Shown: one piece after another, positions 3,920 through 62,867 of the stretch | How the letters are laid out: each line of letters opens with the position of its first letter | How positions within the stretch are numbered: the stretch's first letter is position 1 | Assembly (NCBI GenBank): GCA_028712565.1 | Contig: JAQTPW010000002.1 | Coordinates: 35,601-99,600, forward strand | From: Minisyncoccota bacterium | Lineage (GTDB): Bacteria; Patescibacteriota; Minisyncoccia; Minisyncoccales; JAQTPW01 | Direction of reading: 5' to 3' | DNA: 64,000 nt | The notes under the pieces: model-generated | Databases searched by the model: none | What the model saw: only the letters and a program-made list of their open reading frames with translations | Told to the model about the DNA's origin: nothing | Translations under genes and position numbers: made by a program

Positions 3920-4068
3920 TCTAATCTCCTTTCTTGTGATTTTCTATTTAATATATTTTAAATACAACTCGATGTAGTTGTTAAATTAGTTAAGGCATAG
4001 AACCCACTAATTGCTGATTAAAAAATAACACAAAAAAATAATTTTGGCAAAAATCTAAGCAGCGAAAA

Positions 4069-6246
4069 TTATTCCATCGGCAGTTCGACGAAGAAAGTGG
4101 CGCCCTTGCCTTTTCCCTTTGATTCTGCCCAGATTTTGCCTTGGTGGAGCTCCAAAAATTTTTTAGCAACATAAAGCCCGAGGCCTGTTCCTTCAATAAA
4201 CAGGTCAATGCCGGCAGAGCCCCGGGAAAATCCCTGGAAAATATTTTCCAGCTCTTCTTTGGTTAGCCCTTCTCCGGTATCTTTTATTGAAAATAAAATA
4301 GATGATTTTTTCTTTTTCGCTTTAATTAATATTTCTCCTTGGGTTGTGTATCTGATGGCGTTGTCAATTAAATTCAAAAATACTTGCCTGATTTTTAAAG
4401 CGTCTACTTCAATTTTTGGCAAAGCAATTTTTGGCTTTTCAAACGTCAGTTTTAAATTCTTCTTTTCCACTTCGTGCTCCAATTCTTCAATACAGGAGCC
4501 AACCAAATCCAGAACCTGCATCTTTGATTTCTCGGTTTCCATTTTTCCCAAATCAATTTTTGAAATATCCAGTAAGTCATTTACCATTTTAATCAATCTT
4601 TCATTTGATTGGGTGACATTTGTCAGCTTTTCTTTTGCCTTGTCTGAAATCGGCCCAAAGCTTCCTTCGATAAGCATAGACACATATCCCTTAATTGCAG
4701 CCAGCGGGGTTCTCAACTGATGGGATGCCATTGAAATAAATTCCGATTTTGCTTTGTCTAGCGTTTTTAATTCTTCATACGCCACCCGTAATTCTTTTGT
4801 CTGTTCGTCCACTTTCCTTTGCAGGTTTTTTGATAAGTCCTGCACTTGTCCGTATAGTTTTGCATTCTGTAAAGCAATTGATGCCTGGTTTGAGAGATTA
4901 GTTAATAACTGGACATCCTGTTCAGAATAAGGATCTCCGGAAATCTTATTTCCCAAAACAATCATCCCGATTATCTTGTCTTCCATAAACAAGGGTATGC
5001 AAAGAGACGCTTCAATTTTTTTCATATTCTCTCGCAAATATTCCAGCTTTTCTTTTTCGGAAGCTTCCCGGGCATCCCGGATGATTAATAATAACTCTTC
5101 ATATACCAGCGATTTTTGGGTTCTTTCGAGATAAGTGGTAAGAAAATTATCTTTAACCAAGGAAATGCCGTTTTCTTCCTTAAATCCTACATTCTTTTGG
5201 ATTTTATATTCCCCGCTTCCTGTTTCTCGCAAGAGAATTACTGTCCTGTCCAGCTTCATAGTATTTACCAAAGTATTGGCTATTAAAGACGTTAATTTAT
5301 CCAGCTCCAAAAATTGGGTTAATCTTCTGCCCAAGTCGGCAAATACGGTTTGGTAAGAATAAAAAGTGTAATAAAAATATTTTGCGGCAAGGTTTTCAAA
5401 AAACCGGAAGATGGGCTGGAAAACAATGATGCCGATTATTAAGATTGAAATAGAAACAACATTTAGCGGCATTGCCGGCCATAGCCGCGCGTGGCCGAAT
5501 AGCAGCAAAACCGCCAGAAGGATAACCGAAATAAAAGAAAAAAGGTATATCGCGCTTCTGCCCAAGACAAAACGCAGATCCATTAAGCGGTATTTAACGA
5601 TTGCATATCCAATAATTCCCAAGAAAATAAGAATAGGTATAAAGCCGAATGGATAGAATTCGTGTCCGTAGTTAATCAAAAAATCAGAAGAAGCAAATGC
5701 GTAAAAAATTATGGCTGTTAAAATATATTTTGTCTGCGATTTTTTTAAAAAAAATCCAGGCCCCTTTTTTATTTCAACAAAAAATAAATAGATTACTCGT
5801 ACCAATAATACACCGATAAATAAAAGGAAAAACGGGTGTAAAAAATTTGCTTTTGGATAAAATCCCCAAAAGAATTTATAATAGCCATTTATAAAATAAT
5901 TAGTGGAGAATAAAATAATTTCAAATGCGAGCGCGACAAAATAAGACAAATAAAGTGTTATTTTGTTAAATTTATCCTTTTTTTCTAAAAAAGTTATAGA
6001 AAAACGCAAGAAAGTTACTGGTAAAAATATTATTCCAATATAGCCAATTTTTACTAGTATTTCAGCTAACCCAACATCTCGCGTATTAAATAAAAAAAAC
6101 CAGCTTAACTGCCACCAAGAAGTAGTAATGCAAATTAATAGAAAAGTAAAATTAATACCCGATTTCCGGTTCTTAAAAAAAACAAAACCCCCCAAAAATA
6201 AGAACAAAATTGAACTTAAAATTGGGGGGATTGAAAGCGGGTTCAT
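4069..6246 (-). CDS. multi-TM GAF-domain sensor histidine kinase
   Basis: About 300 aa of TM helices, a GAF-like middle region, H-box SHQLRTPLAAIKGY, and the HATPase motifs DNAIRYT, DTGEG, GTGLGL. The kinase core is paralogous to 1433-2731. Confidence 0.85.
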   Translation of the reverse strand: MNPLSIPPILSSILFLFLGGFVFFKNRKSGINFTFLLICITTSWWQLSWFFLFNTRDVGLAEILVKIGYIGIIFLPVTFLRFSITFLEKKDKFNKITLYLSYFVALAFEIILFSTNYFINGYYKFFWGFYPKANFLHPFFLLFIGVLLVRVIYLFFVEIKKGPGFFLKKSQTKYILTAIIFYAFASSDFLINYGHEFYPFGFIPILIFLGIIGYAIVKYRLMDLRFVLGRSAIYLFSFISVILLAVLLLFGHARLWPAMPLNVVSISILIIGIIVFQPIFRFFENLAAKYFYYTFYSYQTVFADLGRRLTQFLELDKLTSLIANTLVNTMKLDRTVILLRETGSGEYKIQKNVGFKEENGISLVKDNFLTTYLERTQKSLVYEELLLIIRDAREASEKEKLEYLRENMKKIEASLCIPLFMEDKIIGMIVLGNKISGDPYSEQDVQLLTNLSNQASIALQNAKLYGQVQDLSKNLQRKVDEQTKELRVAYEELKTLDKAKSEFISMASHQLRTPLAAIKGYVSMLIEGSFGPISDKAKEKLTNVTQSNERLIKMVNDLLDISKIDLGKMETEKSKMQVLDLVGSCIEELEHEVEKKNLKLTFEKPKIALPKIEVDALKIRQVFLNLIDNAIRYTTQGEILIKAKKKKSSILFSIKDTGEGLTKEELENIFQGFSRGSAGIDLFIEGTGLGLYVAKKFLELHQGKIWAESKGKGKGATFFVELPME

Positions 6247-7482: not shown

Positions 7483-8757
7483 TTATTTTTTATTGTTATT
7501 TTTTTCTTGATTAAATAAAACGATATCTCGATACGGCTCATTAATAATATTCGTTTCTTTTAGGCCAAGCCTTGAAAGAAGATTCATATTTTTATCTAAT
7601 GCCATTTCCCTATCGCTTTTTTTGATATTAATGCCTTCTATTTCTACAAACCATCCGGCATTTTCCACGTTATCAATAGTTATCTTTTGATTTCCCAAAT
7701 CGTACGTTTCTCTTTCCTTTATTACTTCGGCAACTTTTATAAAATTGAGCGCTTGAAGCAGCGATTCCGCTTCTTCTTTTGAAGATTTTAATAAAATGTT
7801 AAATTCTGGCTTCCAAAATTGTTTTTTATTATCCATATCCTTTGTGGTTGGCCCTTTGTAAGTTAATTCTAAAGCATCGTCTTTTTGCCTGATTCGCAGG
7901 CATATTTTTGATTTAATAAAATCTTCGTAGGCAGAAGTAAAGTATGCATCTTTTTCTTTCTTTTTTTCTTTTAAAATAGCTCCCAACATAAGCAGTTTTT
8001 TTCTTATAGAGTCGGCTTCTGATCGGTTTATTTTTACCTTAATTTCTATTTCTTCACCCTGATTTGAATCCATTAAAGAAGCATAAAAGTATTTCCCTTC
8101 TGCCCCACTTTTTTTGATAATTTCATTGGCTTTCATTTCCGTTAATTCTTGCCAAGATGTTCCCGGAAAATTATTTCTGAAAGATTCAACAATGTAGACA
8201 CCTAGTTTATAACCAATCCATTTTGGCAGGATTCCCTTGCCATAAAACCACTCCGCATGATTATAACTGCCGCCTTTTCCCTCGTCTCTTTTTCGGATAA
8301 TTTTTAGAAAATCAGAAATCTCTTTTTCGTTAAACTTGGCCCACGGCGCGACAAATGCTTTCCATTGCTCTTTTTCAAAGACCGAAGCTATTCCTTCGCT
8401 GACAATCGTCTCTAAAAGAGTGTTGCCGTATCCAATAGATCTCCAGCGGGCGATATGGTTCATTTCGTGGTAAATATTTGCCGGCAAATATTTTTCAATT
8501 ATATTTTTTAAGCCGCATTTTTTATTTTTTGGATCGATGTAAATCTGAATCCAGTCCCCGGACGGCGTATAGCCCCCTTCTCCGGTTTCCGGCATCGCCC
8601 AAGAAGGCTTAGGATAAACCGTTATCGTAACATAAGGTATATTCAAAAGCCGGCCCGCCGCCAAAGCGTGCTTTTTTATTGTTTTATTCAACAAATCCTT
8701 TTCTTCTTTAGGAATATCAAACCCGCTTTTTACATAATTTATAAATAGTTTGGTCAT
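7483..8757 (-). CDS. fusion protein: DUF2268-like putative Zn-metalloprotease domain + CYTH (CyaB/ThTPase-like) domain
   Basis: N-terminal half has YHEMNHIARW (HExxH) followed by ETIVSEGIASVFE. C-terminal half starts with the CYTH signature EIEIKVKI (ExExK) and has the pattern ...LRIRQ...LTYKG...FVEIEG. Confidence 0.6.
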   Translation of the reverse strand: MTKLFINYVKSGFDIPKEEKDLLNKTIKKHALAAGRLLNIPYVTITVYPKPSWAMPETGEGGYTPSGDWIQIYIDPKNKKCGLKNIIEKYLPANIYHEMNHIARWRSIGYGNTLLETIVSEGIASVFEKEQWKAFVAPWAKFNEKEISDFLKIIRKRDEGKGGSYNHAEWFYGKGILPKWIGYKLGVYIVESFRNNFPGTSWQELTEMKANEIIKKSGAEGKYFYASLMDSNQGEEIEIKVKINRSEADSIRKKLLMLGAILKEKKKEKDAYFTSAYEDFIKSKICLRIRQKDDALELTYKGPTTKDMDNKKQFWKPEFNILLKSSKEEAESLLQALNFIKVAEVIKERETYDLGNQKITIDNVENAGWFVEIEGINIKKSDREMALDKNMNLLSRLGLKETNIINEPYRDIVLFNQEKNNNKK

Positions 8758-8764
8758 AATAATT

Positions 8765-9613
8765 TTAAACTGATTTTGCTAAGTTTTCCCATTCAGAGAG
8801 AGTTAAGGTTTCGGCGCGGCGAGAATGGTCTATATTGTTTTTTTGGAGCCAAGATTTGGCTTTTTCTTTATCAATGTCTAGACCTTTTGATAAATTATTG
8901 ACTAGCTGCTTTCTCGGCTGGGAAAAGCCGGCTTTTACAACTTTGAAAAACGAATCTGTGTCAATTTGCGGCAAATTAGCGCCTATTCGTGGTAAATTCG
9001 TGCAAATTCGCGATATCCGAATAATCGCGCTGTCCACTTTTGGCTGCGGCCAAAATGATTTTTTGGAAATGTAGCTTATAATTTCCGGCTTTGCGTAAAA
9101 TTGGACGGAAACAGCCAGAAGGTTCATATCGGGAACTTTTGCGCAGATTCTCTGGGCAACTTCTTTTTGGATTATAAAAACCATCTCATCTGGCGGATTT
9201 TCAACTTCCAGAAACTTTCTTATAATCGGCGCTGTTAAATAAAAGGGAAGATTTGCTAGAACTTTATAGGATTTAGAATTTGGGATATAGGATTTAAGAT
9301 TTATCTTTCTGGCATCTTCTTGCACGACTTCAACATTGCCAAAATCCGCAAGGGTTTCTTTCAAAATCTCTATCATTTTTTCATCTTTTTCTATGGCAAG
9401 GACCTTTCCTACTCTTTTGGCTAATTCTTGGGTTAGATTTCCAATTCCCGGGCCAATTTCCAAGACAAGGTCGTCTTTTGAAAGGTTTGCCGCGCAAATT
9501 AGCTTCTCAATTGCGCCTTTATTTATCAAAAAATTCTGGCCGAACTTCTTTTCCGGCCGGGTTTTATGATTTTCAAGCAAGTTTTTGACGGATTCTTTAG
9601 AGGCAATATCCAT
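8765..9613 (-). CDS. rsmA: 16S rRNA (adenine1518/1519-N6)-dimethyltransferase
   Basis: FGQNFL motif, SAM motif LEIGPGIGNLT, NLPFY motif, typical length. Confidence 0.9.
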   Translation of the reverse strand: MDIASKESVKNLLENHKTRPEKKFGQNFLINKGAIEKLICAANLSKDDLVLEIGPGIGNLTQELAKRVGKVLAIEKDEKMIEILKETLADFGNVEVVQEDARKINLKSYIPNSKSYKVLANLPFYLTAPIIRKFLEVENPPDEMVFIIQKEVAQRICAKVPDMNLLAVSVQFYAKPEIISYISKKSFWPQPKVDSAIIRISRICTNLPRIGANLPQIDTDSFFKVVKAGFSQPRKQLVNNLSKGLDIDKEKAKSWLQKNNIDHSRRAETLTLSEWENLAKSV

Positions 9614-17580: not shown

Positions 17581-17843
17581 TTATGTATTAATATAAGGTT
17601 AAAATAAAATTACCTCTAGGGGGAAAATTCTTAATTAATCATATCTAAAAAAAACAAAAAAGGCAAGATGCCCTAAGGTAAAAATCCCAATTATCAATTA
17701 CCAATTACCAAATCGAATGTAATTTGTACGAGTAATTTGTAATTGGGGAGCAAATTTTTATTCACATTTCGCAGTCGTACCGCCCTAATTACTAAATACT
17801 AACTACTAACTACTGCAATATTTTGCAATGGCAAAATTTGCTG

Positions 17844-17916
17844 TGCCCCGCGCAGGGCTCGGACCTGCAACCTTGTCCTTAAGAGGGACCTGCTCTACCA
17901 ATTGAGCTAGCAGGGC
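17844..17916 (-). tRNA. tRNA-Lys(CTT)
   Basis: Hand fold: acceptor GCCCTGC/GCGGGGC, anticodon loop CT-CTT-AA, T arm GCAGG-TCCGAGC-CCTGC. CCA is not encoded. Confidence 0.8.
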
Positions 17917-35886: not shown

Positions 35887-37416
35887 ATGAATTCATTACT
35901 TCTATTAATTGTAGGCGTTTTAGCCTTAGGAATAGGATCAACTTTAGGGTATCTTGCCCGCCAATCAATCGCGAGAAGGAATTACCGGACCATAGAAGCC
36001 CGGCTCCAAAAGAAAATTGATCAGGCAAGGCAGGACGCTGATTTAATATTATCTCAGGCAAAAGAAAAATCATCTCTAATCCTTGAATCTGCAAAAAAGA
36101 ATGAAGATGAGAGGAGGGCAGACCTTTTGCAAACAGAAAGGCTTCTTTTAAGGCGTGAAGATGTTTTGGATGAAAAAATTTCCAATCTGGAAAAAAGGGA
36201 AAATGAGTTTAATGATAGGGTGGAAAAATTAAAAGAGATAAAAGAAAATCTGGAAGGTTTGCACAAATCCGCCCTTGAAAATTTGGAGAGAATTTCCGGG
36301 CTTTCCAGAGAAGAGGCAAAAAAAGAATTTTTGGGAAATTTGGAAAGGGAATATCAAAAAGAATTTATGGAAAGAACCAGAAAGTTGGAATCAGAGGGAA
36401 TAGAACAATTTGAAAAAAAAGCAAAAGAAATTTTAGCATTAGCCATTCAAAAACTGGCAATTAACCAATCTCAAGAAATTACAACAACTACTGTCAGCCT
36501 TCCCTCTGAAGAAATAAAAGGCAGGATTATCGGAAAAGAAGGGAGAAATATAAGGACTTTGGAAAGGTTGACCGGAGTGGAAATTGTAGTTGACGAAACC
36601 CCAGAGGCAGTTGTAATTTCCGCCTTTGATCCTATAAGAAGGCAAATTGCAAAAGTAGCTTTGGAAAAACTGATGCAGGATGGCAGAATCCAGCCGGCCA
36701 GAATTGAAGACACGGTTATCAAAGCAAAAGAGGAAATAGCAAAACAAATAAAAGACGCAGGAGAGCAGGCAGTTTATGATGTTGGGCTTTTGGGTTTGGA
36801 CCAAAAATTAGTCCAGCTATTGGGAAGGCTGCGCTTTAGAACAAGTTACGGCCAGAATGTTTTATTGCATTCAATTGAGGTGGCGCATTTGGCCGCGGGA
36901 TTGGCCGCTGAAATAGGAGCCAATGCAAAGACGGCTTTGAAAGCCGGATTGTTGCACGATATCGGTAAGGCCGTTGACCAGCAAGTGGAGGGTTCTCATA
37001 CAGATATTGGGGTTAAAATTTTGGAAAAATTCGCAGTAGAAAAAGAAGTGGTAGATGCCATGAAATCCCATCATGAAGAATATCCTTATTCCAGCTTGGA
37101 AGCTATAATAGTCCAGACAGCCGATGCCATATCCGGGTCAAGGCCGGGAGCCAGAAAAGATACTTTGGAAAATTATTTGAAAAGATTGGGAGATTTGGAA
37201 AATATTGCCACATCTTTTGCCGGCGTAGAAAAAGCTTGGGCATTGCAAGCTGGAAGAGAAATCAGAGTTTTTGTAAAGCCGGAAGAAATAGATGACTTTG
37301 GAGCAAAAAAACTGGCAAAAGAAATCGCCAATAAAATTCAGGAAGAATTAAAATACCCCGGAGAAATAAAAGTGAATGTGATCAGGGAAAGCAGAGTCGT
37401 GGAATACGCAAAGTAA
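35887..37416 (+). CDS. rny: ribonuclease Y
   Basis: N-terminal TM helix, coiled coil, KH domain (GRIIGKEGRNIR) and HD domain (LLHDIGKA). Confidence 0.9.
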   Translation: MNSLLLLIVGVLALGIGSTLGYLARQSIARRNYRTIEARLQKKIDQARQDADLILSQAKEKSSLILESAKKNEDERRADLLQTERLLLRREDVLDEKISNLEKRENEFNDRVEKLKEIKENLEGLHKSALENLERISGLSREEAKKEFLGNLEREYQKEFMERTRKLESEGIEQFEKKAKEILALAIQKLAINQSQEITTTTVSLPSEEIKGRIIGKEGRNIRTLERLTGVEIVVDETPEAVVISAFDPIRRQIAKVALEKLMQDGRIQPARIEDTVIKAKEEIAKQIKDAGEQAVYDVGLLGLDQKLVQLLGRLRFRTSYGQNVLLHSIEVAHLAAGLAAEIGANAKTALKAGLLHDIGKAVDQQVEGSHTDIGVKILEKFAVEKEVVDAMKSHHEEYPYSSLEAIIVQTADAISGSRPGARKDTLENYLKRLGDLENIATSFAGVEKAWALQAGREIRVFVKPEEIDDFGAKKLAKEIANKIQEELKYPGEIKVNVIRESRVVEYAK

Positions 37417-37534: not shown

Positions 37535-37709
37535 GAGTATATTTACGACTTCGCTCGAACTCATTTTATCAGAAATTCCTGAAAAATCCAGTGCTCGCCG
37601 CCCGACTGGCGGCGAGCAGGAAACACCCTCGGCTCGCGGGCGAAAAATCCTTCCCCCAGCCCCTTTTCATTTTTCGCCCGCTCGCCGGAAAAATTTTTGA
37701 GGGAAAAAA
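37535..37709 (+). repeat. inverted repeat X, left copy
   Basis: 37535-37641 is the exact reverse complement of 40743-40849 (107 bp by hand alignment). The inner part is diverged but ends in a shared 27-mer. It contains the GC-rich hairpin ctcgccgcc-cgact-ggcggcgag. Confidence 0.85.
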
Positions 37710-39125
37710 TTATTTAGAAATTGTAATGTAGGTATTACTTTGACTCAAGAGTAAATTTTTAACCTCAATACCCCAACTTGATAAAATATTTACATCTCCT
37801 ATTTGAATTTTGTATTTAGCCGGTCCAATTTTAAATCTCTGAAAAAGTCCAACTGGTATGTTCCAATCAAACACTTTCTGGGAAACCAAAACATCTTTTG
37901 CGATAAGATATCTCGGCGTTAAATCGCTAGTTGGATAATATTGATAATCAATTTTTGGCTCAATATCTTTTCCGTCTTGCTGATAAGCGTACAAATAAAT
38001 ATTAACTTTTTTATTTTCTAATCCTAATTGATCCCATTTAATAGAGTATATGCCGCCTTCTCTTAATTGGTTTTCTGGTTGCAAAGCCTCTAATTTTGTT
38101 GGCTCAATAAATTTAAAAGTAGACACTGTTTGATTAAGGGTTTCTTCCATTTTTTTAGAATCTGACCCGACGGTAATTCCAATCATAAACAAATAATTTC
38201 CTTTTGCTACAAAATTATCAATAGCTTTGCCACCATTTACGCAGACAGCATTTATCCCATCAATTTCGCCTATTTTTACTTCCTTGGTTGCGCATTGCTT
38301 AGTAAAAAACGACGGCATATATTTATTTAACCATTCTTTGGTAGGAAAATTTTCCGAATTATCGTAAACTGCGATGTTTATTCCGTCCGGCAGAATCCGC
38401 ACTAGCTTGAGACAAGTGTACTCCTCCGTTCCTTGACACCACCAATAAGGCTGGCTTTCGATTTTTACCTCACTATTTTGCGGATATTTTATTTCAAAGC
38501 CATATTCCCCATTCTTGTAGGTCTGCCAAGTAACAGTTTCCCCGTCTGAAACAACCTTAAAGTAATTGGGTGATTCTTTTGTATCTTCAATCCGCCCCTT
38601 TTTATCATGGCCGGTAATAATAACTTTAAAATTATCCCCCGATTGCCAAACTGGATATGCGTTAAAAAGATCACTAGGAATGGACCAATTATAGACCCCG
38701 TCTTTGGCAGAAAAATTATCAATGATCTGGCCGTAGCAAACCTCTGTTTTAGCCATTTCAGAAGGTAAAAAGATATTTTCCATGCTGGTTGTAGAATATC
38801 TATTAAGACAATCATAATTAACTATCTGAATTCCTATTTTATCTATGCCGGTTGATTGCCATTGAATTGGATACGTGTTTCCAACTTTTAATTCGTTTTC
38901 AACTGAAGAAACCGCCAATGCGGGTTGCTTCCAGTTTTTATCGTGAAAATAAGCTATACCACTGAGTATAGAAATAACCACAATAACAATGATTATAGCG
39001 GGAAGCCAGTAACGAACGGGGATTTGGGCGTGCGTTACGCCCTCTCCTTTTCTTCTAGAAATCATCCATATTATAAAACCCCCGAGTAAAAATACTACTA
39101 AAAGAGTGATTGTTGAAGATTCCAT
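37710..39125 (-). CDS. N-terminally anchored surface protein with repeated beta-rich modules
   Basis: TM helix at the N-terminus. Two similar modules (VGNTYPIQWQSTG..DGVYNWSIPSDLF..GDNFKVIITG and EGGIYSIKWDQLG..VFDWNIPVGLF..AKYKIQIGD). Confidence 0.55.
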   Translation of the reverse strand: MESSTITLLVVFLLGGFIIWMISRRKGEGVTHAQIPVRYWLPAIIIVIVVISILSGIAYFHDKNWKQPALAVSSVENELKVGNTYPIQWQSTGIDKIGIQIVNYDCLNRYSTTSMENIFLPSEMAKTEVCYGQIIDNFSAKDGVYNWSIPSDLFNAYPVWQSGDNFKVIITGHDKKGRIEDTKESPNYFKVVSDGETVTWQTYKNGEYGFEIKYPQNSEVKIESQPYWWCQGTEEYTCLKLVRILPDGINIAVYDNSENFPTKEWLNKYMPSFFTKQCATKEVKIGEIDGINAVCVNGGKAIDNFVAKGNYLFMIGITVGSDSKKMEETLNQTVSTFKFIEPTKLEALQPENQLREGGIYSIKWDQLGLENKKVNIYLYAYQQDGKDIEPKIDYQYYPTSDLTPRYLIAKDVLVSQKVFDWNIPVGLFQRFKIGPAKYKIQIGDVNILSSWGIEVKNLLLSQSNTYITISK

Positions 39126-39140
39126 AATTATTATATTATT

Positions 39141-40196
39141 TTAGAAATTACTCTGAAAAATTACAGGGACAATTAATGGTGAAGGTGGAGATACGTGAGT
39201 AGCCGGCCAGTCGCCAAAAATCTCAATAGTCCCTTTTTTAGATAACGGGGAAGAAAAAGAAACAGTTTTACTAAAGGGACAAAATAGTCTTGCATAATCA
39301 CAATTTTCGCAATCGCAATTTTCAATTTGAGTAGTTGTAAAGGTAGAAACCAACTCTTTGCCAGTTTCGTCCTTTATTTTAATATAAACCGTACCTTCAA
39401 AGGTGCTTGCCTTGCCTTCAATCTCAACCGGATTGAAAACTACCGAATTTGGTTGAGGTTGATCAACTACAATAAATTTTTGAAATGTTTCTTCTCCACT
39501 ACCGATTGTTTGTTCTTCATTTTCGCCCGTTTCTTCCGACACGCCAAAATACTGCAAAGCCAAAATTCCTAATCCTCCAAATACTAAAATGGCAATAATT
39601 ACAATAATTAAAGTCTTCTTTATCGGTCGAGTTTTCTCTGCGTATTGAATTTCAGGCGATGCTTTTGATAATTTTATAAGAAAATGATGCACCGAAAAGA
39701 AGCTAATAAATGACAATACTACTAGCAGTATAATCAAAAGTATAAATAATATTATTATCCAAGCAATAGGTATGCCCGTAAACTTCCCTGTTAAAAAATC
39801 TAAAAGAATAAGGAAAATATTGATTGAAATTATCCAAATTATAGTAGTCTTAGCTATTTTTTCAATTTGTTGAAAATCAATTTGAAAACGTTTTGCCACG
39901 GATTTAGCACCATATATGCTGCCAAGGAAACTTCCGATAGCTACGGCTAAAATCAAATAAAGAAGACTTATAATATTTGTATTGCCTGGCTCAATGTTAA
40001 ATATAAAAACAAGAACAAACGCAAAGGCAAGCCAAGTTAAAAAAGCAGTGAGTAAAATCTGCTGAGCAATAAAAAAACTGATTTTATTAACGGAAGCAGG
40101 GACTGCCATAACTTTTTTCCTATCTATTATATATTTCACAGGTAAAATAATTACCGCAAGGATAATTATAATGAAAAAGATTGCAAAAAGAGGCAT
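39141..40196 (-). CDS. polytopic membrane protein with C-terminal Gmad2-like Ig-fold domain
   Basis: About 6 TM helices. The C-terminus is VVDQPQPNSVVFNPVEIEGKASTFEGTVYIKIKDETGKEL...GTIEIF. Confidence 0.55.
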   Translation of the reverse strand: MPLFAIFFIIIILAVIILPVKYIIDRKKVMAVPASVNKISFFIAQQILLTAFLTWLAFAFVLVFIFNIEPGNTNIISLLYLILAVAIGSFLGSIYGAKSVAKRFQIDFQQIEKIAKTTIIWIISINIFLILLDFLTGKFTGIPIAWIIILFILLIILLVVLSFISFFSVHHFLIKLSKASPEIQYAEKTRPIKKTLIIVIIAILVFGGLGILALQYFGVSEETGENEEQTIGSGEETFQKFIVVDQPQPNSVVFNPVEIEGKASTFEGTVYIKIKDETGKELVSTFTTTQIENCDCENCDYARLFCPFSKTVSFSSPLSKKGTIEIFGDWPATHVSPPSPLIVPVIFQSNF

Positions 40197-40223
40197 GATT
40201 GTTTATTGTTTTAATATTACCAT

Positions 40224-40252
40224 ACTATACCTCAAAAATAGCCTTTAGACAA
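40224..40252 (-). promoter_or_regulatory. sigma70-like promoter for 39141-40196
   Basis: Minus strand TTGTCT, 17-nt spacer, TATAGT, about 25 nt upstream of the ATG. Confidence 0.45.
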
Positions 40253-40253
40253 G

Positions 40254-40285
40254 TATAAAAAAGCCCCTCGATGCTATCTCGGGGC
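40254..40285 (-). terminator. terminator after 40308-40613
   Basis: Minus strand gcccc...ggggc stem followed by tttttt. Confidence 0.45.
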
Positions 40286-40307
40286 TTTTCAGCACTCCAG
40301 AAAAGGA

Positions 40308-40613
40308 CTACTTTAGCAAGTTTTTAGGCAATTTTACTACTTCTCTGAAATATATCTTGGATCCTTTGACTTCGTTATCGCTTATACGAATTAAGTGTTT
40401 CCCGCAATCACAGAGAAAGAGGCCGTTCTTTTCCGGAAATTCGCCACAACAAGCGGGTGGCTTCCGACCAATGCTGTTCTTAGCAGTCTTAATGCCATCG
40501 TCCCACCTCTCAAATCCCTGGAAGACAATCTTGGCGTAAAATGTGGTCTTTAATCTAAGATTTCCAACCCTTACATCTTCCTGAAGAACAACTGTATTCC
40601 TTATTCTTTTCAT
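40308..40613 (-). CDS. small 4-Cys (zinc-ribbon-like) protein, unknown function
   Basis: 101 aa containing ACCGEF...CDCGKH. A strong RBS (aaaggagg) and promoter lie upstream. Confidence 0.5.
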   Translation of the reverse strand: MKRIRNTVVLQEDVRVGNLRLKTTFYAKIVFQGFERWDDGIKTAKNSIGRKPPACCGEFPEKNGLFLCDCGKHLIRISDNEVKGSKIYFREVVKLPKNLLK

Positions 40614-40637
40614 TTTTTCCTCCTTTTATGATTTAAA

Positions 40638-40666
40638 ATTGTACCTTATTTATTCAAAATTGTAAA
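40638..40666 (-). promoter_or_regulatory. sigma70-like promoter for 40308-40613
   Basis: Minus strand TTTACA, 17-nt spacer, TACAAT. Confidence 0.45.
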
Positions 40667-40673
40667 GGTTTCA

Positions 40674-40849
40674 TTTTTTTCCTCAAAAATTTTTCCGGCG
40701 AGCGGGCAAAAAATGGAAGGGTTTTAGGGGAGGAAATTTTTTGCCCGCGAGCCGAGGGTGTTTCCTGCTCGCCGCCAGTCGGGCGGCGAGCACTGGATTT
40801 TTCAGGAATTTCTGATAAAATGAGTTCGAGCGAAGTCGTAAATATACTC
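40674..40849 (-). repeat. inverted repeat X, right copy
   Basis: Reverse complement of 37535-37709. Confidence 0.85.
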
Positions 40850-40983
40850 CACGATAAAACTTTTCGGCTTTTTGGAAGCCATTTCACGGGCGGCGCAAAG
40901 CGCCGCCCAGTGCGTTTTAAGAGGGAAATCCGTTCCGCTCGGCGCGCTCTGGCGCGCCTCGCGGTTTAGTAAAATGAGGTTCG
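40847..40983 (-). repeat. inverted repeat Y, left copy
   Basis: Exact reverse complement of 42538-42674 (137/137 by hand alignment). It overlaps the X copy by 3 nt. Confidence 0.9.
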
Positions 40984-41007
40984 TTGAGCGATTTTTAAAA
41001 AGAATTT

Positions 41008-41034
41008 TTGCTTTTTATTTTGGCGTGGTATAAT
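41008..41034 (+). promoter_or_regulatory. extended -10 promoter for the recombinase
   Basis: TGgTATAAT at 41026-41034 with a weak -35 (ttgctt). Confidence 0.4.
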
Positions 41035-41150
41035 GAAGTTGCGACAAACAGACCAACGAATTTTTTAATGGCCGTCTTCGGAACAATCCAATTCGTTGGG
41101 TTTGTCGCACCGAGGGCGGCCATTTAAGTTTTAATAACTAATCAAAATAT

Positions 41151-42701
41151 ATGCAAAAATTCTTTTTATACGCCCGCAAGTCCACCGATGTGGAAGACAA
41201 ACAAGTTAGGTCTATTGAAGACCAAATATCAGAATTGCGCGCCTTTGCTCAAAAAGAAAATTTAGAAATTACTGATATTTTTATCGAAAAACAATCCGCC
41301 AAAGTTCCGGGCAGGCCAATTTTTAACAAAATGATAAAACGAATTGAAGGGGGCGAGGCAGACGGAATTTTGGCGTGGCACCCCGATAGATTGGCGCGCA
41401 ATTCGGTGGACGGTGGAAAAATTATCTATCTCATTGATTGCGGGCGTATTTCTACCCTGAAATTCCCGACTTTTTGGTTTGAACCAACGCCGCAAGGAAA
41501 ATTCATGTTGAATATTGCTTTTGGGCAAAGCAAATACTATGTTGATAATTTGAGCGAGAATACAAAAAGAGGTTTGCGCCAAAAAGTTAGACGAGGCGAA
41601 TATCCGGGTTTCGCGCCGATTGGATATTTAAACGATTCAAGAATAAAAAGCGTGGTTATGGACAAAAAGAAATCTCAAATTATCAAAAAGGCATTTGAAC
41701 TCTACGCCGAAAACAATTATCGGCTTGAAGATGTTTCTAACTTTTTGGCGCAACAAGGAATTACTTCGCGAGGCGGAAAAAACCTAAAACGAGACAGAAT
41801 TTCTTTTATCCTTTCCAATCCGTTTTATGTCGGGTTATTCAGATATTCTGGCGAAATACACGAAGGCAAGCATCAGCCAATTATATCAAAGAAAATTTTT
41901 GATAAAGCGCAGGAAATCTTAAAGCAAAGAGGAAGACCGCACCACAAACCTAAAAATGAACCTCAACCATTTTGCGGGGTTTTGAAGTGCGGGAATTGCG
42001 GAATGTCCATCACTGGCGAATACAAGGTTAAAAGACAAAAGAACGGCAACGAGCATTACTACACCTATTACCACTGCACCCACAAATCCAAAACAATCAA
42101 ATGCAAAGAGCCTTGTATTCGCCAAGAGAAATTAGATAAACAAATTTCCTCTTTGCTTCAAAAATTTTCTTTGAAAAAAGCTTGGGCAGAAGAATTAAAT
42201 AAAATGTTGGAAAAAGATAAAACGAAAACCGCCCAATCTTTTACCGCTTTTGTTCAAGGAGCGCAAAACAAAGTTAAAGAAATTTCCATCAAACTTCAGC
42301 GTCTTTTGGACGGCTATTTAGAACAAGATATTGAAAGAGAAATTTATAGAGTAGAAAAAGCAAAACTGCTTTCCGAAAAGAAGTCGCTGGAAGAAAAAAT
42401 AACCTCTCTTGAACAAAAGCGGATTGGCTGGATCGAACCGATGAAAGAATGGATAAAAGAAGCAGAAAACCTTCCTAAAATCGCTCAAAACGACAACCTT
42501 TTTGCTAAAAAGGTCGCCTGCCGAAATATTTTCGGCTCGAACCTCATTTTACTAAACCGCGAGGCGCGCCAGAGCGCGCCGAGCGGAACGGATTTCCCTC
42601 TTAAAACGCACTGGGCGGCGCTTTGCGCCGCCCGTGAAATGGCTTCCAAAAAGCCGAAAAGTTTTATCGTGGAGCGGGTAATGGGAATCGAACCCACATA
42701 A
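41151..42701 (+). CDS. large serine recombinase (resolvase domain + recombinase domain + zinc ribbon + coiled coil)
   Basis: YARKSTDVEDKQVRSIEDQ (catalytic Ser motif), HPDRLARN, PFYVGLFRY, and CGVLKCGNCG...YYTYYHCTH. The last codons (..MGIEPT*) read through the T-arm of tRNA-Gly, so the native C-terminus is uncertain. Confidence 0.85.
   Translation: MQKFFLYARKSTDVEDKQVRSIEDQISELRAFAQKENLEITDIFIEKQSAKVPGRPIFNKMIKRIEGGEADGILAWHPDRLARNSVDGGKIIYLIDCGRISTLKFPTFWFEPTPQGKFMLNIAFGQSKYYVDNLSENTKRGLRQKVRRGEYPGFAPIGYLNDSRIKSVVMDKKKSQIIKKAFELYAENNYRLEDVSNFLAQQGITSRGGKNLKRDRISFILSNPFYVGLFRYSGEIHEGKHQPIISKKIFDKAQEILKQRGRPHHKPKNEPQPFCGVLKCGNCGMSITGEYKVKRQKNGNEHYYTYYHCTHKSKTIKCKEPCIRQEKLDKQISSLLQKFSLKKAWAEELNKMLEKDKTKTAQSFTAFVQGAQNKVKEISIKLQRLLDGYLEQDIEREIYRVEKAKLLSEKKSLEEKITSLEQKRIGWIEPMKEWIKEAENLPKIAQNDNLFAKKVACRNIFGSNLILLNREARQSAPSGTDFPLKTHWAALCAAREMASKKPKSFIVERVMGIEPT
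42538..42674 (+). repeat. inverted repeat Y, right copy (inside the recombinase 3' coding region)
   Basis: Identical to the reverse complement of 40847-40983. Contains the GC palindromes ggcgcgc-caga-gcgcgcc and gggcggcgc-ttt-gcgccgccc. Confidence 0.9.
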
Positions 42702-42743
42702 ATAGCTTGGAAAGCTATCACACTACCATTGTGTTATACCCGC
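42670..42743 (-). tRNA. tRNA-Gly(TCC)
   Basis: Acceptor GCGGGTA/TACCCGC, discriminator U, CCA encoded. Anticodon stem ATAGC/GCTAT with loop TT-TCC-AA. T arm GTGGG-TTCGATT-CCCAT. Confidence 0.8.
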
Positions 42744-42804
42744 CTTCGCCAGCCGTAGCTGGCTTCGGCGGGAAATGACCGCCAAGGCTAGCGAAGGCTG
42801 GATG

Positions 42805-42876
42805 TCGGGGGAGAGGGAGTTGAACCCTCAATCTTACGCACCCAAAGCGCACATGTTGCCATTACACCATCCCCCG
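42805..42876 (-). tRNA. tRNA-Pro(TGG)
   Basis: Acceptor CGGGGGA/TCCCCCG, anticodon loop TT-TGG-GT, T arm GAGGG-TTCAACT-CCCTC. Confidence 0.75.
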
Positions 42877-42964
42877 CTGGATAATAACATTCTAATATAT
42901 TTTTCCCCCAAGTCAATTTAACTTTTTTCTTCTTGGGTCCCTTTAAATATGTTATAATATTTTA

Positions 42965-43912
42965 ATGGATAAACCAAAATTTATTGAAAGTGCTAATATT
43001 TACTCCCAGTGCAAAAAATACGGGCTTCCTCTTTGGCAGTGCCCCCAATTTTTATTTTTGATAATGGGAGCAGTTATTGTTACGGCAATTTTAACAACTT
43101 ATATTGTCGGCACCCATTATGTCAACAACCCCCCGCTTATTACTTTAATTATTTTGATATTAGTTGTAATTTTATTTGTCATATCCTTTGTCATAATAAA
43201 GAGCTTTGAAAGGTTGGCAGAAGCAAACCGGATGAAATCTGAATTTGTTAATATTGTTTCTCATCAGTTGAGATCCCCCCTTACAAATTTGAACTGGACG
43301 ATTGAATTATTGATGTCGGGAGAGGTCGGAAAAATCGGAGAAAAACAGGTGGATTATTTCAGAATTTTGAAAGAAAACAGCGGCAGAATGGCTGATCTTA
43401 TTTCCGACCTTTTGATAGCTTCAAAAATTGAAACTGCAACTTTGCCAGCAAAAAAAGAGGAAGTTTCTTTAAGGAAAATATTAGATGAATTAATAAAAGA
43501 ATTCGCCCTTTTTGCAAAAGCTTCAAATGTGGAAATGAAATTTGATTTTCAAGAAAATCTGCCTTTAATTTTAGCAGATTCTTTCCAGATTAAACTCGCA
43601 ATTGAAAACCTTTTGGATAATGCAATCCGCTACGTAAAGACAAACGGCGAAGTTTCAATAAAGCTGGAAAAGCAGGGGAAAAATATTTATTTGGAAATAA
43701 AAGATAACGGAGTCGGCATTCCAAAAGATGATCAGAAATACATTTTCCAAAGATTTTTCCGTTCCGAAAATGCGCTTCGCCACCAGACGCAGGGAACAGG
43801 CTTGGGCCTGTATATAACAAAGGCAATAATAGAAAAATCGGGCGGAAAAATAAGTTTTAAATCAATAGAAAATAAAGGGACAACTTTTTCCCTTATATTC
43901 CCGGCCAAATAA
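42965..43912 (+). CDS. sensor histidine kinase
   Basis: Two TM helices. H-box SHQLRSPLTNL and the HATPase motifs DNAIRY, DNGVGI, GTGLGL. Confidence 0.85.
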   Translation: MDKPKFIESANIYSQCKKYGLPLWQCPQFLFLIMGAVIVTAILTTYIVGTHYVNNPPLITLIILILVVILFVISFVIIKSFERLAEANRMKSEFVNIVSHQLRSPLTNLNWTIELLMSGEVGKIGEKQVDYFRILKENSGRMADLISDLLIASKIETATLPAKKEEVSLRKILDELIKEFALFAKASNVEMKFDFQENLPLILADSFQIKLAIENLLDNAIRYVKTNGEVSIKLEKQGKNIYLEIKDNGVGIPKDDQKYIFQRFFRSENALRHQTQGTGLGLYITKAIIEKSGGKISFKSIENKGTTFSLIFPAK

Positions 43913-43948
43913 AATTTAAAAATTATTATTAATTATTAAATTTAAAAC

Positions 43949-44320
43949 ATGAAAAAAATTCTTTTCATTGAAGACGAATCAGCTCTTCAAAAAACCTTTA
44001 GCGACCTTTTATCAGCCGCGGGATTTGAAATGATTTCTGCCCTAGACGGGGAAATCGGGCTGGAGTTGGCCCAAAGAAAAAATCCAGATTTGGTTCTATT
44101 GGACCTTGTTTTGCCAAAAATGCATGGCTTGGAAGTTTTAAAAAAGCTGAAAGAAGACCCAAAAACGAAAGAAGTACCGATTATTATTTTAACTAATTTG
44201 GAAGGAATGGCAGAAGTTGAAAAAGCGTTAGAACTGGGAGCTACAACTTATTTGGTAAAATCCCAATACGATTTAAAAGAAGTAGCAGAAAAAATAAAAC
44301 AAATTTTAAACAATAAATAA
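43949..44320 (+). CDS. single-domain response regulator (CheY/PilH-like receiver)
   Basis: DE...DLVLLDLVLP..G.....K pattern. 123 aa with no output domain. Confidence 0.85.
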   Translation: MKKILFIEDESALQKTFSDLLSAAGFEMISALDGEIGLELAQRKNPDLVLLDLVLPKMHGLEVLKKLKEDPKTKEVPIIILTNLEGMAEVEKALELGATTYLVKSQYDLKEVAEKIKQILNNK

Positions 44321-46068
44321 TGAAAGTAGAACCGGGACAGCTGAAAGCTTTTTTACTGGACGCTTCCTTGATTACCGAAGAGCAATTTGGCGAGGCGCAA
44401 AAAAAAGCCAAAGGCTGCGATAAAAAAATCGAGGATGTTTTAATTTCTGACGGATTAATCAGCCAAGAAGAATTAATAAAACTTGAGGCCTATATTTTGG
44501 GCATTCCTTTTGTCAATTTGGAAAAAGAAATAATATTGCCGGAAATTTTAAAAATAATACCAGAGCCCATCGCCAGGTCAAATAATATAATTGCTTTTAG
44601 AAAAAGCGGCCAGAATCTGGAAGTGGCTATGCTAGACCCCGAAGATTTAAGAACAATAGAATTTATTAAAAAAACATCTGATTACAAGATATTGCCGCGC
44701 CTTACCACTCCGGAGGGAATAAAAAATGTTTTGCGCCAATACCAGCAGACCTTGGAAGTCGAATTCGGCGAGATTATTAAAAAAGATGCGGGAATTATCC
44801 AGCCGATAAAAGAAACAGAAGAAGTTGAAGAAAAGGAAGAATTGAGAAAAGCGGCTGAAGAATTGCCGGTAATCAGAATTGTAGACACTTTATTAAAGCA
44901 TGCTATTTTGCAAAGAGCTTCCGATATTCATATTGAGCCGACAGAAAAAGAAGTGATAGTCAGATATAGGATAGACGGGATTTTGCACGACGCCATGGTA
45001 TTGCCCAGGCAGGCAAGCTCAGGAATTGTTGCCAGAATCAAAGTGCTATCAAATTTAAAATTAGACGAACACCGCCTTCCGCAAGACGGCAGGTTCAAAG
45101 TTGAAACCGAAGATTATAAATATTCTATCAGGGTTTCAATTTTGCCTGTTTTTGACGGGGAAAAAATCGTAATGAGGCTGCTTCCTGAAACTTCAAGGGC
45201 TTATACTTTGGAGGGCTTGGGCCTGAGAGGCGAAGCTTTGGAAAAAATACAAGACAATCTTAGAAAACCAGTAGGGATGATTTTGGTGACAGGCCCCACC
45301 GGGTCTGGTAAGACAACAACTTTATATGCCATGATGGAAATTTTGAATACGCCTTCAGTAAACATATCCACGGTTGAAGATCCGGTTGAGTACAGGATGC
45401 CAAGAGTGAACCAAACCCAGGTAAATCCAAAAATCGGCTTCACTTTTTCCAGCGGGCTTAGGTCTTTGGTCAGGCAAGATCCGGATGTTTTAATGGTCGG
45501 GGAAATCAGGGATAATGAAACTGTGAGTTTGGCAATAAATGCGGCCCTGACCGGCCACTTGGTTTTATCTACTTTGCATACAAATTCCGCTGCGGGCTCT
45601 ATTCCAAGATTAATAGATATGAAAGCCGAACCCTTTTTGATTTCTTCTACTTTAAACTGCATTTTAGCCCAGAGATTGGTCAGAAAGCTTTGCGACGAAA
45701 AGGAAAAATACAATTTGAAGGAAGCTGAACTGAAAAATATAGAAAAATATTGCGATTTAAACAGAATTTTAAAAATTTTAAAAGAGGAAAAAATAGTATC
45801 TCAAAAAGCAACTTGGAAAAACGTTGATTTTTACCGGGCGAAGCCCACAAAAGAAAACCCCGAAGGGTATAAAGGCAGGGTTGGGATTTACGAAGTCCTG
45901 TCGGTGACAGAAACAATAAAAGAAATGATTATAAAACAGGCGTCTTCAGACCAAATTCAAGAGCAAGCCCAAAAAGAAGGAATGAGGACAATGCTTGAAG
46001 ACGGGTTTGTTAAAGCTGCCCAGGGGCTGACAAGCATAGAAGAAATTTTGAGGGTTATTATTGAATAA
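44320..46068 (+). CDS. pilB: type IV pilus assembly ATPase (GspE/PilB family)
   Basis: N-terminal MshEN-like domain, Walker A GPTGSGKTTT, Asp/His boxes, 582 aa. Confidence 0.9.
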   Translation: MKVEPGQLKAFLLDASLITEEQFGEAQKKAKGCDKKIEDVLISDGLISQEELIKLEAYILGIPFVNLEKEIILPEILKIIPEPIARSNNIIAFRKSGQNLEVAMLDPEDLRTIEFIKKTSDYKILPRLTTPEGIKNVLRQYQQTLEVEFGEIIKKDAGIIQPIKETEEVEEKEELRKAAEELPVIRIVDTLLKHAILQRASDIHIEPTEKEVIVRYRIDGILHDAMVLPRQASSGIVARIKVLSNLKLDEHRLPQDGRFKVETEDYKYSIRVSILPVFDGEKIVMRLLPETSRAYTLEGLGLRGEALEKIQDNLRKPVGMILVTGPTGSGKTTTLYAMMEILNTPSVNISTVEDPVEYRMPRVNQTQVNPKIGFTFSSGLRSLVRQDPDVLMVGEIRDNETVSLAINAALTGHLVLSTLHTNSAAGSIPRLIDMKAEPFLISSTLNCILAQRLVRKLCDEKEKYNLKEAELKNIEKYCDLNRILKILKEEKIVSQKATWKNVDFYRAKPTKENPEGYKGRVGIYEVLSVTETIKEMIIKQASSDQIQEQAQKEGMRTMLEDGFVKAAQGLTSIEEILRVIIE

Positions 46069-62751: not shown

Positions 62752-62795
62752 ATAATTAAAAATAGCTCATTTCAAGCTATTTTTAAAGAGATATG

Positions 62796-62867
62796 AGCGG
62801 GTGAGCGGAATCGAACCGCCGTCACTACCTTGGCAAGGTAGTGTAATAGCCACTATACGACACCCGC
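62796..62867 (-). tRNA. tRNA-Gly(GCC)
   Basis: Acceptor GCGGGTG/CACCCGC, discriminator U, anticodon stem CTACC/GGTAG, loop TT-GCC-AA. The trailer is CATATC, with no CCA. Confidence 0.8.

Follow-up and report, generated by a model that had tools for sequence, protein, structure and literature searches.

In Tn4451 and Tn5397 (TnpX, TndX) and in SCCmec (CcrAB), one large serine recombinase (LSR) mobilises a non-phage island in circular form, and the junction core has 2–3 nt (GA in Tn4451 and Tn5397). An inverted spare gene end is lacking in these elements, and their targets are not tRNA termini. In the Hin system, the segment that is inverted contains the recombinase gene itself, and in cluster G mycobacteriophages, which reportedly show integration-dependent immunity, the phage attachment site (attP) is said to lie within a gene of the element. 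The "suicidal" SSV-type integrases of archaea also have attP in an element gene, which is split by integration at a tRNA gene (PMC7253208). In intragenic invertons, one repeat arm lies in a coding sequence, and inversion recodes the end of the protein (bioRxiv 10.1101/2023.03.11.532203). Small islands with variable, often defence-like cargo are found by tRNA genes as tycheposons, a minority of which use LSRs (bioRxiv 10.1101/2020.12.28.424599), and as Islander-type islands (PMC4383910). Here we describe an LSR-bearing island in a 64,000-nt stretch of contig JAQTPW010000002.1 (assembly GCA_028712565.1) from a Minisyncoccota bacterium; this whole stretch is referred to below as the window, and positions are counted from its first letter. 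We consider it probable (roughly 0.7) that the island belongs to a family of the candidate phyla radiation (CPR) that carries its attachment (att) site within the 3' end of the LSR gene, and that a flip of the LSR cassette restores the native C-terminus of the enzyme.

The LSR gene lies at 41151–42701 on the plus strand and, in its present tRNA-fused state, encodes 516 aa ending in ...KSFIVE-RVMGIEPT. The product matched the resolvase catalytic domain (PF00239, E=6e-23), the Recombinase domain (PF07508, E=6e-17) and Zn_ribbon_recom (PF13408, E=1.3e-8), a combination that identifies it as an LSR. The catalytic domain has its nucleophilic serine, and R9, S11 and D13 of the catalytic motif YARKSTD were invariant in 28 homologs. 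The coiled coil of this family was also present, with helices at residues 343–390 and 396–425 in an AlphaFold2 (AF2) model. The closest LSRs of solved structure, those of SPbeta and A118 (E-values of about 1e-10 against the Protein Data Bank), aligned only to about residue 414, indicating that the C-terminal region beyond this point is family-specific.

An inverted-repeat search of the window found two arms of 137 nt that were 100% complementary and 1554 nt apart, Y' (40847–40983, minus strand) and Y (42538–42674, plus strand). The runner-up inverted pair within 38000–46000 had only 33 nt at 79%, which rules out chance as the source of the 137-nt repeat. Y holds LSR codons 463–508, and Y' is an inverted spare copy of the same codons with 100% identity over 137 nt. 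Because Y begins at base 2 of codon 463, a putative promoter, a structured leader and codons 1–462 of the LSR fall between the arms. The first-pass annotation, which was made from the sequence alone, had claimed a perfect 137-bp inverted repeat bracketing the recombinase promoter and codons 1–462, and its coordinates proved to be exact.

We then placed this architecture in its family. A word-indexed protein search gave at least 8000 relatives, the top 120 of which were 70–89% identical to the window LSR, and the latter was 100% identical to a protein of a 'Candidatus Pacebacteria' metagenome-assembled genome (MAG). A genome scan gave at least 586 confirmed relatives, and 80 species-level loci (numbered with the prefix L) were retained for counts; the retained LSRs diverge to about 53% amino-acid identity. 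The Y' feature was found at 49 other loci, an inverted copy of the last 114–219 bp of the LSR frame lying upstream of the gene in 49 of the 80. At the loci lacking Y', the contig usually begins or stops at the repeat. Arm boundaries were constant, the inner one at codon ~463 (FGSNL) and the outer one at TGG(A/T)G. Arm identity within a locus had a median of 99.3%, with perfect arms in 23 of 49, and the Y arms of different loci were identical to each other at a median of 45%; to judge from these alignments, the two arms evolve in concert over an ancient shared design. The window comes from a MAG, and inverted repeats longer than the assembler k-mer are error-prone, as would suit an assembly artefact or a recent dead duplication private to this MAG. 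We regard the probability of such an origin as negligible, given that the same architecture with locus-specific sequences was found across some 50 assemblies, the work of many projects and assemblers; this recurrence effectively refutes the artefact that the first-pass annotation had allowed for.

The two ends of the cassette lead into different sequences. On the right, the final 32 nt of the LSR open reading frame (ORF) overlap a minus-strand tRNA-Gly(tcc) gene. On the left, Y' read on the minus strand continues into 40846–40803 and gives ...KSFIVE-YIYDFARTHFIRNS followed by a stop codon (hereafter tail B), so that a flipped LSR would have 522 aa, a product that is not a contiguous translation of the window. 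Homologs were aligned to locate the native C-terminus. Their conservation reached ...KSFIVE and then split into two classes, one with antisense-tRNA tails and one with tail B. Among the top 120 database homologs, 18 ended in tail B and about 80 in antisense-tRNA peptides, the remainder being unsortable, and single clusters of LSRs at least 90% identical carried either tail B or tails derived from a number of different tRNAs. Tail B has the motif x(L/I)Y(D/N)x(A/V/I)RT(Y/H/F)FxxNx with a stop at the same place, its frame being open for 12–15 codons in 43 of 46 loci, and the DNA outside Y' is conserved on the coding strand as T(A/G)T(A/C)TTTAC(A/G)ACnnn(G/A)C(T/C)(C/A)GAAC..ATTTTATC..TGA. The use of both CGA and AGA as Arg codons and the free third positions of the Thr codon indicate protein-level selection on tail B, and GAAC is nearly fixed, which suggests that the DNA itself is constrained as well. 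The conservation of tail B, together with the occurrence of the same enzyme with tail B or with varied tRNA tails, marks the tRNA-encoded end as a junction product; by this comparison, tail B is the native C-terminus of the LSR. This agreed with two proposals of the first-pass annotation, namely that the tRNA-like end of the ORF was suspicious as a native end and that the frame would, after a flip, read from KSFIVE into X (the segment adjoining Y'); what it reads there is the conserved tail of the family. In the AF2 model, which was that of a tail-B homolog, KSFIVE and tail B formed a terminal helix at 503–520 (predicted local distance difference test [pLDDT] scores of 87–89).

The layout of the flanking DNA shows, at the level of sequence, that 37538–42674 (~5.1 kb) is an integrated mobile island for which the LSR is the evident driver. 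Its order is X', three minus-strand cargo genes, X, Y', promoter-leader-LSR and Y. The outer copy X' (37538–37710, plus strand) carries 14 tail-B codons and a stop (37538–37582), followed by two GC-rich hairpins, and the inner copy X (40673–40846, minus strand) encodes tail B (40846–40803, with the stop at 40805–40803) and then hairpins; the two copies are inverted and 93% identical over 174 bp. X'/X thus enclose the cargo and Y'/Y the promoter-leader-LSR segment, so that two adjacent segments each lie between inverted repeats. Y' and X add up to an entire attP-type junction (Y-GAG-tail B), which is inverted.

On the left, the RNase Y gene (35887–37416) is followed by a terminator and then by aaaaatGAG/TATATTTACGAC, the start of X', so that an attL-type core GAG (37535–37537) joins host DNA past the RNase Y terminator to X'. 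On the right, an attR-type core GAG (42672–42674) is the reverse complement of C72-U73-C74 of tRNA-Gly(UCC) (42670–42743, minus strand), the integration target, whose encoded CCA and trailer derive from the Y end; a tRNA-Pro gene is next, at 42804–42876. The three junctions host/X', X/Y' and Y/tRNA read aaaaatGAG/tatattt, atcgtgGAG/tatattt and atcgtgGAG/cgggtaa, with only GAG in common. At 17 other loci, the shared core was TGGTG if the native tRNA gene encoded CCA and only GAG or GTG if it did not, and most tRNA genes in the window are without an encoded CCA (e.g. 62795–62867, 17843–17916 and 42804–42876). These cores and the CCA-less tRNA genes place the exchange point within the reverse complement of tRNA positions 72–74; across the aligned junctions, the core is seen to covary with the discriminator base. 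The 3–5 nt shared by the junctions would be compatible with an attP x attB exchange at a 2-bp core that leaves attL and attR with no long duplication of the target. Joining the two outer junctions reconstructs an empty site that reads ...ACCCGCTCATTTTTAAAAAG, and a tRNA-Gly(gcc) gene ending in CCCGCTC/AT matches it. We also observed that tRNA-Gly(UCC) encodes CCA only because the Y end of the island supplies TGG, and that the island swaps the native T-rich trailer of the tRNA for its own hairpin terminator.

A convergent tRNA gene overlapped the end of the ORF in 54 of the 80 loci, involving 24 tRNA species, and the DNA to the right of Y was always a tRNA acceptor stem and T-arm read on the opposite strand. 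This comparison shows an att site that lies within the LSR gene, whose frame runs across the junction, and an integration at the 3' terminus of tRNA-Gly(UCC) that costs the enzyme its 14 conserved last residues. The last 14 native codons, with the terminator-like hairpins of X', are displaced to the far left end of the island (37538–37582, the attL side), and a full 3' module (Y', tail B and X, with the spare 14 codons at 40846–40805) is maintained base for base inside it in inverted orientation. In a separate observation, the X'/X pair could make the cargo segment invertible too, its right-hand junction being common with that of the LSR cassette.

Perfect terminal inverted repeats around a single gene are also what insertion sequences have, and many gene-bearing contigs were only ~2 kb long. 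The 1828-bp unit 40847–42674 might on these grounds be an insertion sequence-like transposon with Y' and Y as its terminal inverted repeats, the LSR as its transposase and X as a preferred target or a neighbour. This is very improbable, since the outer flank of Y' was the conserved tail-B/X sequence in every one of about 50 loci and never unrelated DNA, and that flank extends the LSR frame with a conserved peptide and a stop. Moreover, Y is joined to tail B in some near-identical LSRs and to tRNAs in others, assembly breaks at repeats account for the short contigs, and neither a Y'-LSR-Y unit in unrelated DNA without X nor a circular Y/Y' palindromic junction was seen. Y' and Y were rejected as transposon termini on account of that flank, and the locus does not qualify as an insertion sequence.

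Both orientations of the LSR cassette were represented in the family. At four loci (L021, L035, L050 and L053), a tRNA on the LSR strand ends in CCA, and Y', the promoter and the LSR come straight after it; all four contigs end inside Y. A further locus, L081 (the contig of P0003), contains a partial Y', the promoter, the LSR, Y, GAG, tail B, X, cargo and X', an order expected of either a flipped chromosomal state or an excised circle. Read in this way, the assemblies show that both orientations exist among genomes. An ongoing exchange by inversion or gene conversion, as suggested by the first-pass annotation from the perfect repeat, was supported by the near-identical arms in 49 loci of a family whose LSRs diverge to 53% amino-acid identity, and by the four flipped genomes.

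We propose that the LSR cassette is flipped when Y' recombines with Y. The agent would most simply be homologous recombination or gene conversion (RecA), or it may be the LSR itself acting at the GAG cores. The identity of the arms from end to end is most simply accounted for by homologous recombination or gene conversion, and exchange by the LSR at the cores is less suited as an explanation because it would not homogenise the arms. In the present state, the LSR would be convergent with the tRNA operon and the enzyme would lack its tail and bear tRNA-derived residues, probably a quiescent state of low activity. In the flipped state, the LSR gene would be co-directional with the tRNA promoter, and would once more have its own terminators and encode the conserved C-terminal helix (xLYDxxRTYFxxN). 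A flip would in this way switch the element from quiescent to mobile-competent, and the spare module would solve the "suicide integrase" problem of an attP inside the integrase gene, while the Y and X hairpins may stop read-through from the tRNA in either orientation. A further and less probable step is that DNA inversion controls directionality or activity in this LSR family in place of a directionality factor. Integration at a tRNA tip would then retail the enzyme automatically, and a flip onto the spare 3' module would rebuild it, set its gene downstream of the tRNA promoter and license excision or a hop to another tRNA.

The main alternative is that the two orientations arise with no inversion in situ. 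An excised circle would hold attP twice in inverted orientation, as Y-GAG-X' and as an internal twin of it, and could integrate via either copy, the arms being kept alike by non-crossover gene conversion. The circle predicted from attL x attR excision does have two equivalent attP-type junctions, L081 fits such a circle, and the flipped examples are all from different genomes. We nevertheless consider this alternative unlikely. Recombination that keeps inverted arms of 114–219 bp identical should also yield crossovers, that is, inversions, and re-integration leaves the second attP unexplained in streamlined genomes. Nor is a conserved excision factor found among the cargo: the cargo of 20 loci was searched for a conserved excisionase, replication or directionality gene, and nearly all of it was unrelated between loci, the only shared genes forming two small-ORF clusters in 3 and 2 loci.

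Several points weigh against cassette flipping as the way in which the native end is restored. The differences in orientation were seen solely between genomes, and the flipped loci could represent excision followed by re-integration via the other attP copy. In canonical serine integrases, attP-type and attR-type sites recombine only when a directionality factor is present, a rule that, with no conserved factor in the cargo, makes flipping catalysed by the LSR doubtful. Y' is missing at two loci, L102 and L012, and the spare module is therefore not indispensable. An exact search of metagenome contigs for the reconstructed empty site (B arm plus tRNA-Gly) gave 0 matches, and these searches yielded no empty site orthologous to that of the window. 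With a shorter pattern, four tRNA-Gly genes that end in CTCAT and are unoccupied were matched, in unrelated loci without RNase Y synteny, and these lend the reconstructed attB weak support. The AF2 model was poor overall (pLDDT 61.5, from an 18-sequence alignment), too poor for fold comparison, and for this reason only its C-terminal helix and coiled coil were used.

The repeat also carries elements that may act at the DNA or RNA level. Both GC palindromes described in Y by the first-pass annotation were confirmed, as hairpin 1 (42563–42580) and hairpin 2 (42613–42633). Over 40 Y arms, the stem of hairpin 2 was kept by compensatory double changes at 6 of 6 predicted pairs (for example TGGGACGCGCttcGCGCGTCCC, which turns WAALCAA into WDALRAS), so that these changes come at the cost of encoded amino acids; hairpin 1 also covaries, judged by eye. 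On the strand of tRNA transcription (minus), hairpin 2 is followed by GTGCGTTTT and gave a terminator-like score, and the hairpins of Y' and X were also terminator-like and always faced the LSR cassette. Those of the X modules lie at 37618–37592 (X') and 40766–40792 (X). The proposal that the palindromes are binding or crossover sites of the recombinase was not supported, and the crossover reading was rejected, because the stems covary while their sequence drifts and every junction variant departs at the outer Y end (TGGNG), away from the palindromes. Most simply, the conserved folding suggests that the GC hairpins are terminators or insulators replacing the tRNA operon's own terminator in either orientation.

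A short motif, GCTCGAAC(C)TCATTTTA, is shared by Y (42536–42554) and, reverse-complemented, by X (40817–40833). Its presence in both segments was correctly noted in the first-pass annotation; its supposed place in X was not, for it lies near the outer end of X, beside Y', and not at the inner end. At the inner edge of Y (42535–42546, and also at the inner end of Y', 40975–40983), GGCTCGAACCTC, which supplies the FGSNL codons, was invariant as DNA in 40 loci, even at third codon positions, and this indicates a DNA-level constraint. The sequence is similar to a tRNA T-loop (reverse complement GGTTCGAGCC) as well as to the tail-B half-site, and might serve as an additional LSR binding site or as an operator beside the promoter. 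The tail-B half-site ..GCTCGAAC.. in turn resembles the tRNA T-arm half-site ..AATCGAAC.. but lies 4 nt further from the core than the latter. Such a displacement is reportedly the attP/attB pattern of the A118 integrase, and it is what attP and attB half-sites of serine integrases would be expected to show.

Hairpins conserved as structures and terminator-like toward the LSR cassette, and a GGCTCGAACCTC site fixed even at third codon positions, might be all that the repeat is kept for. The Y' and X hairpins would then insulate the LSR promoter and the tRNA operon, Y' would carry an LSR operator, and the tail would be irrelevant to the enzyme, with no role in switching. This is quite improbable, as insulation needs neither a base-for-base match of the arms nor a tail-B frame with a stop behind Y', and flipped loci exist.

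Between the arms, a putative LSR promoter was read by eye at 41008–41034 (plus strand), with TTGCTT, a 15-nt spacer and the extended -10 element TGgTATAAT. These elements are kept in L081 and L102, and the 15-nt spacer accounts for the absence of the site from the list of a consensus scan. It is followed by a structured 5' leader (41041–41124, plus strand), in which a stem (41041–41049/41100–41108 plus 41053–41062/41090–41099) encloses a loop at 41067–41081 that pairs with 41110–41124. The fold is an H-type pseudoknot, the loop UUAAUGGCCGUCUUCGG pairing with CCGAGGGCGGCCAUU just downstream. In its 15-bp long-range helix, 98% of cells were paired and compensatory changes occurred at 11 of 15 pairs, a level reached by 0 of 500 shuffles. 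The enclosing stem is 18–25 bp in most loci with a different sequence at each, and the G-U pairs, found on the sense strand alone, indicate that the structure acts as RNA. The pseudoknot was not present in about 20 loci with short (51–90 nt) leaders. An Rfam search over 38000–46000 (E<=1) matched the two tRNAs only, with no match for the leader or the repeat. The pseudoknot could serve autoregulation or translational control.

The cargo of the window (37710–40613, minus strand) consists of genes at 37710–39125 (471 aa), 39141–40196 (351 aa, with a Gmad2 Ig-like domain) and 40308–40613 (101 aa), and a promoter scan found a promoter-like site beside it (40666–40638, minus strand). X'/X pairs bracketed 1.4–5.3 kb in 20 of the 28 loci having enough upstream DNA, with cargo in either orientation. 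By eye, translations of the cargo included retron-type reverse transcriptase-like, GMP synthase-like and glycosyltransferase-like proteins; L033 has a full-length GMP synthase-like gene (3871–5397), and L005 has a retron-type reverse transcriptase-like gene (2977–4158) beside LamG-like secreted proteins. On these readings, housekeeping-type and defence-type genes both appear to ride on the islands. In viral contigs, the family was essentially absent (best match 43% identity), and a reading of the LSR as a phage integrase was dropped for this reason.

Some loci depart from the common design. L102 (Parcubacteria bacterium Licking1014_1, VMGM01000010.1) has an island at the same junction as in the window, in the order trigger factor-ClpP-RNase Y/TTTTGGAG/TACATTTACAAC..., with seven different small cargo genes and an LSR 82% identical to ours (coordinates 4290–4330, 7750–8000 and 9380–9600). 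Its LSR ends directly in the tail-B-like peptide ..NEARTFFERQSLE, followed by a stop, without an upstream Y', and thus represents a variant architecture. From the two islands, the RNase Y-side site appears to be an insertion hotspot. L012 has a full tail-B LSR (3333–5423) inside an X-type inverted pair with no detectable Y', and 2.5 kb downstream a second, truncated LSR 3' fragment (7794–8255, residues 371–515) reads into tRNA-Ile; this layout suggests either tandem insertions that have decayed or an array whose junctions exceed three. Two family copies at different tRNA genes were found in single MAGs (L073 and L078 in JAPUDQ010000038.1, L024 and L030, L027 and L055, and L040 and L041), indicating that the element is multi-copy within genomes. 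Several loci (L004, L007, L008, L010, L012, L016, L022 and others) are filed as Gammaproteobacteria, Syntrophaceae, Phycisphaerae or Bdellovibrionales MAGs despite a CPR-like LSR and tRNA context; these labels probably reflect mis-binned short contigs, because repeats fragment assemblies.

Overall, the system is partly like a serine integrase island, a Hin switch, an SSV integrase and an intragenic inverton, and it fails the defining features of the last three. With the serine integrases of phiC31, Bxb1, A118 and SPbeta (SprA) it shares the domains, the long coiled-coil helices and a very short common junction core. Its sequence similarity to them is distant. Unlike them, it targets the 3' tip of at least 24 tRNA species, has attP in its own coding end and an att module of ~310 bp duplicated in inverted orientation, is essentially absent from viral contigs and has no evident directionality factor. 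TnpX, TndX and CcrAB resemble it as LSRs that move a non-phage island with a short core. CcrB and XisF were its best NCBIfam matches, at 128.7 against a cut-off of 900 bits and 112.1 against 375, both far short of equivalog membership. As in Hin, Gin, Cin and Pin, the recombinase lies within its own potentially invertible segment, and a flip would change expression. Those are small serine invertases with a C-terminal helix-turn-helix domain, sites of about 26 bp and a Fis-dependent enhancer, whereas here a 516-aa LSR is flanked by homogenised arms (114–219 bp in the family, 137 nt in the window), and a flip would switch the C-terminus of the enzyme itself and the direction of its gene with respect to the tRNA operon.

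As in the SSV and cluster G systems, integration gives the gene a new tail, and in the present case the final 14 codons come to lie at the opposite end of the island. The recombinases of those systems are of the tyrosine type, and no internal spare copy is present, whereas the protein described here has serine recombinase domains and not the tyrosine-recombinase fold, and its inverted full 3' module could rebuild the gene without excision. Most tycheposons and Islander-type islands have tyrosine integrases and a duplicated tRNA fragment, with no paired inverted modules or invertible integrase cassette described; the present island has a serine integrase, and GAG is all that its far end has in common with the tRNA end. 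Unlike intragenic invertons, the recoded gene is the recombinase itself, and the repeats are an order of magnitude longer and part of the attachment machinery. In full-text literature searches, neither this CPR family nor an inverted spare 3' module of an integrase gene was found to have been described, which is not proof of novelty.

The findings bear on annotation, in that family ORFs "ending" in GIEP-type peptides are artefacts of integration junctions, and contigs break at the family's repeats. CPR bacteria (Patescibacteria) have tiny genomes and few described mobile elements, and in them the family is abundant (at least 8000 proteins and at least 586 genome matches), sometimes with several copies per genome; it looks like a major route by which variable, often defence-like cargo is delivered beside tRNA genes. 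Serine integrases are genome-engineering tools, and a family that recognises the universal T-arm and acceptor end, with a core that may be retargeted via the discriminator base, is of practical interest. The locus offers a natural case of a serine integrase gene that would be rewired by integration and inversion, and it makes directionality control free of a recombination directionality factor testable. If such control is real, it would, together with the pseudoknotted leader, be a previously undescribed regulatory logic of a CPR-pervasive element that targets essentially any tRNA gene.

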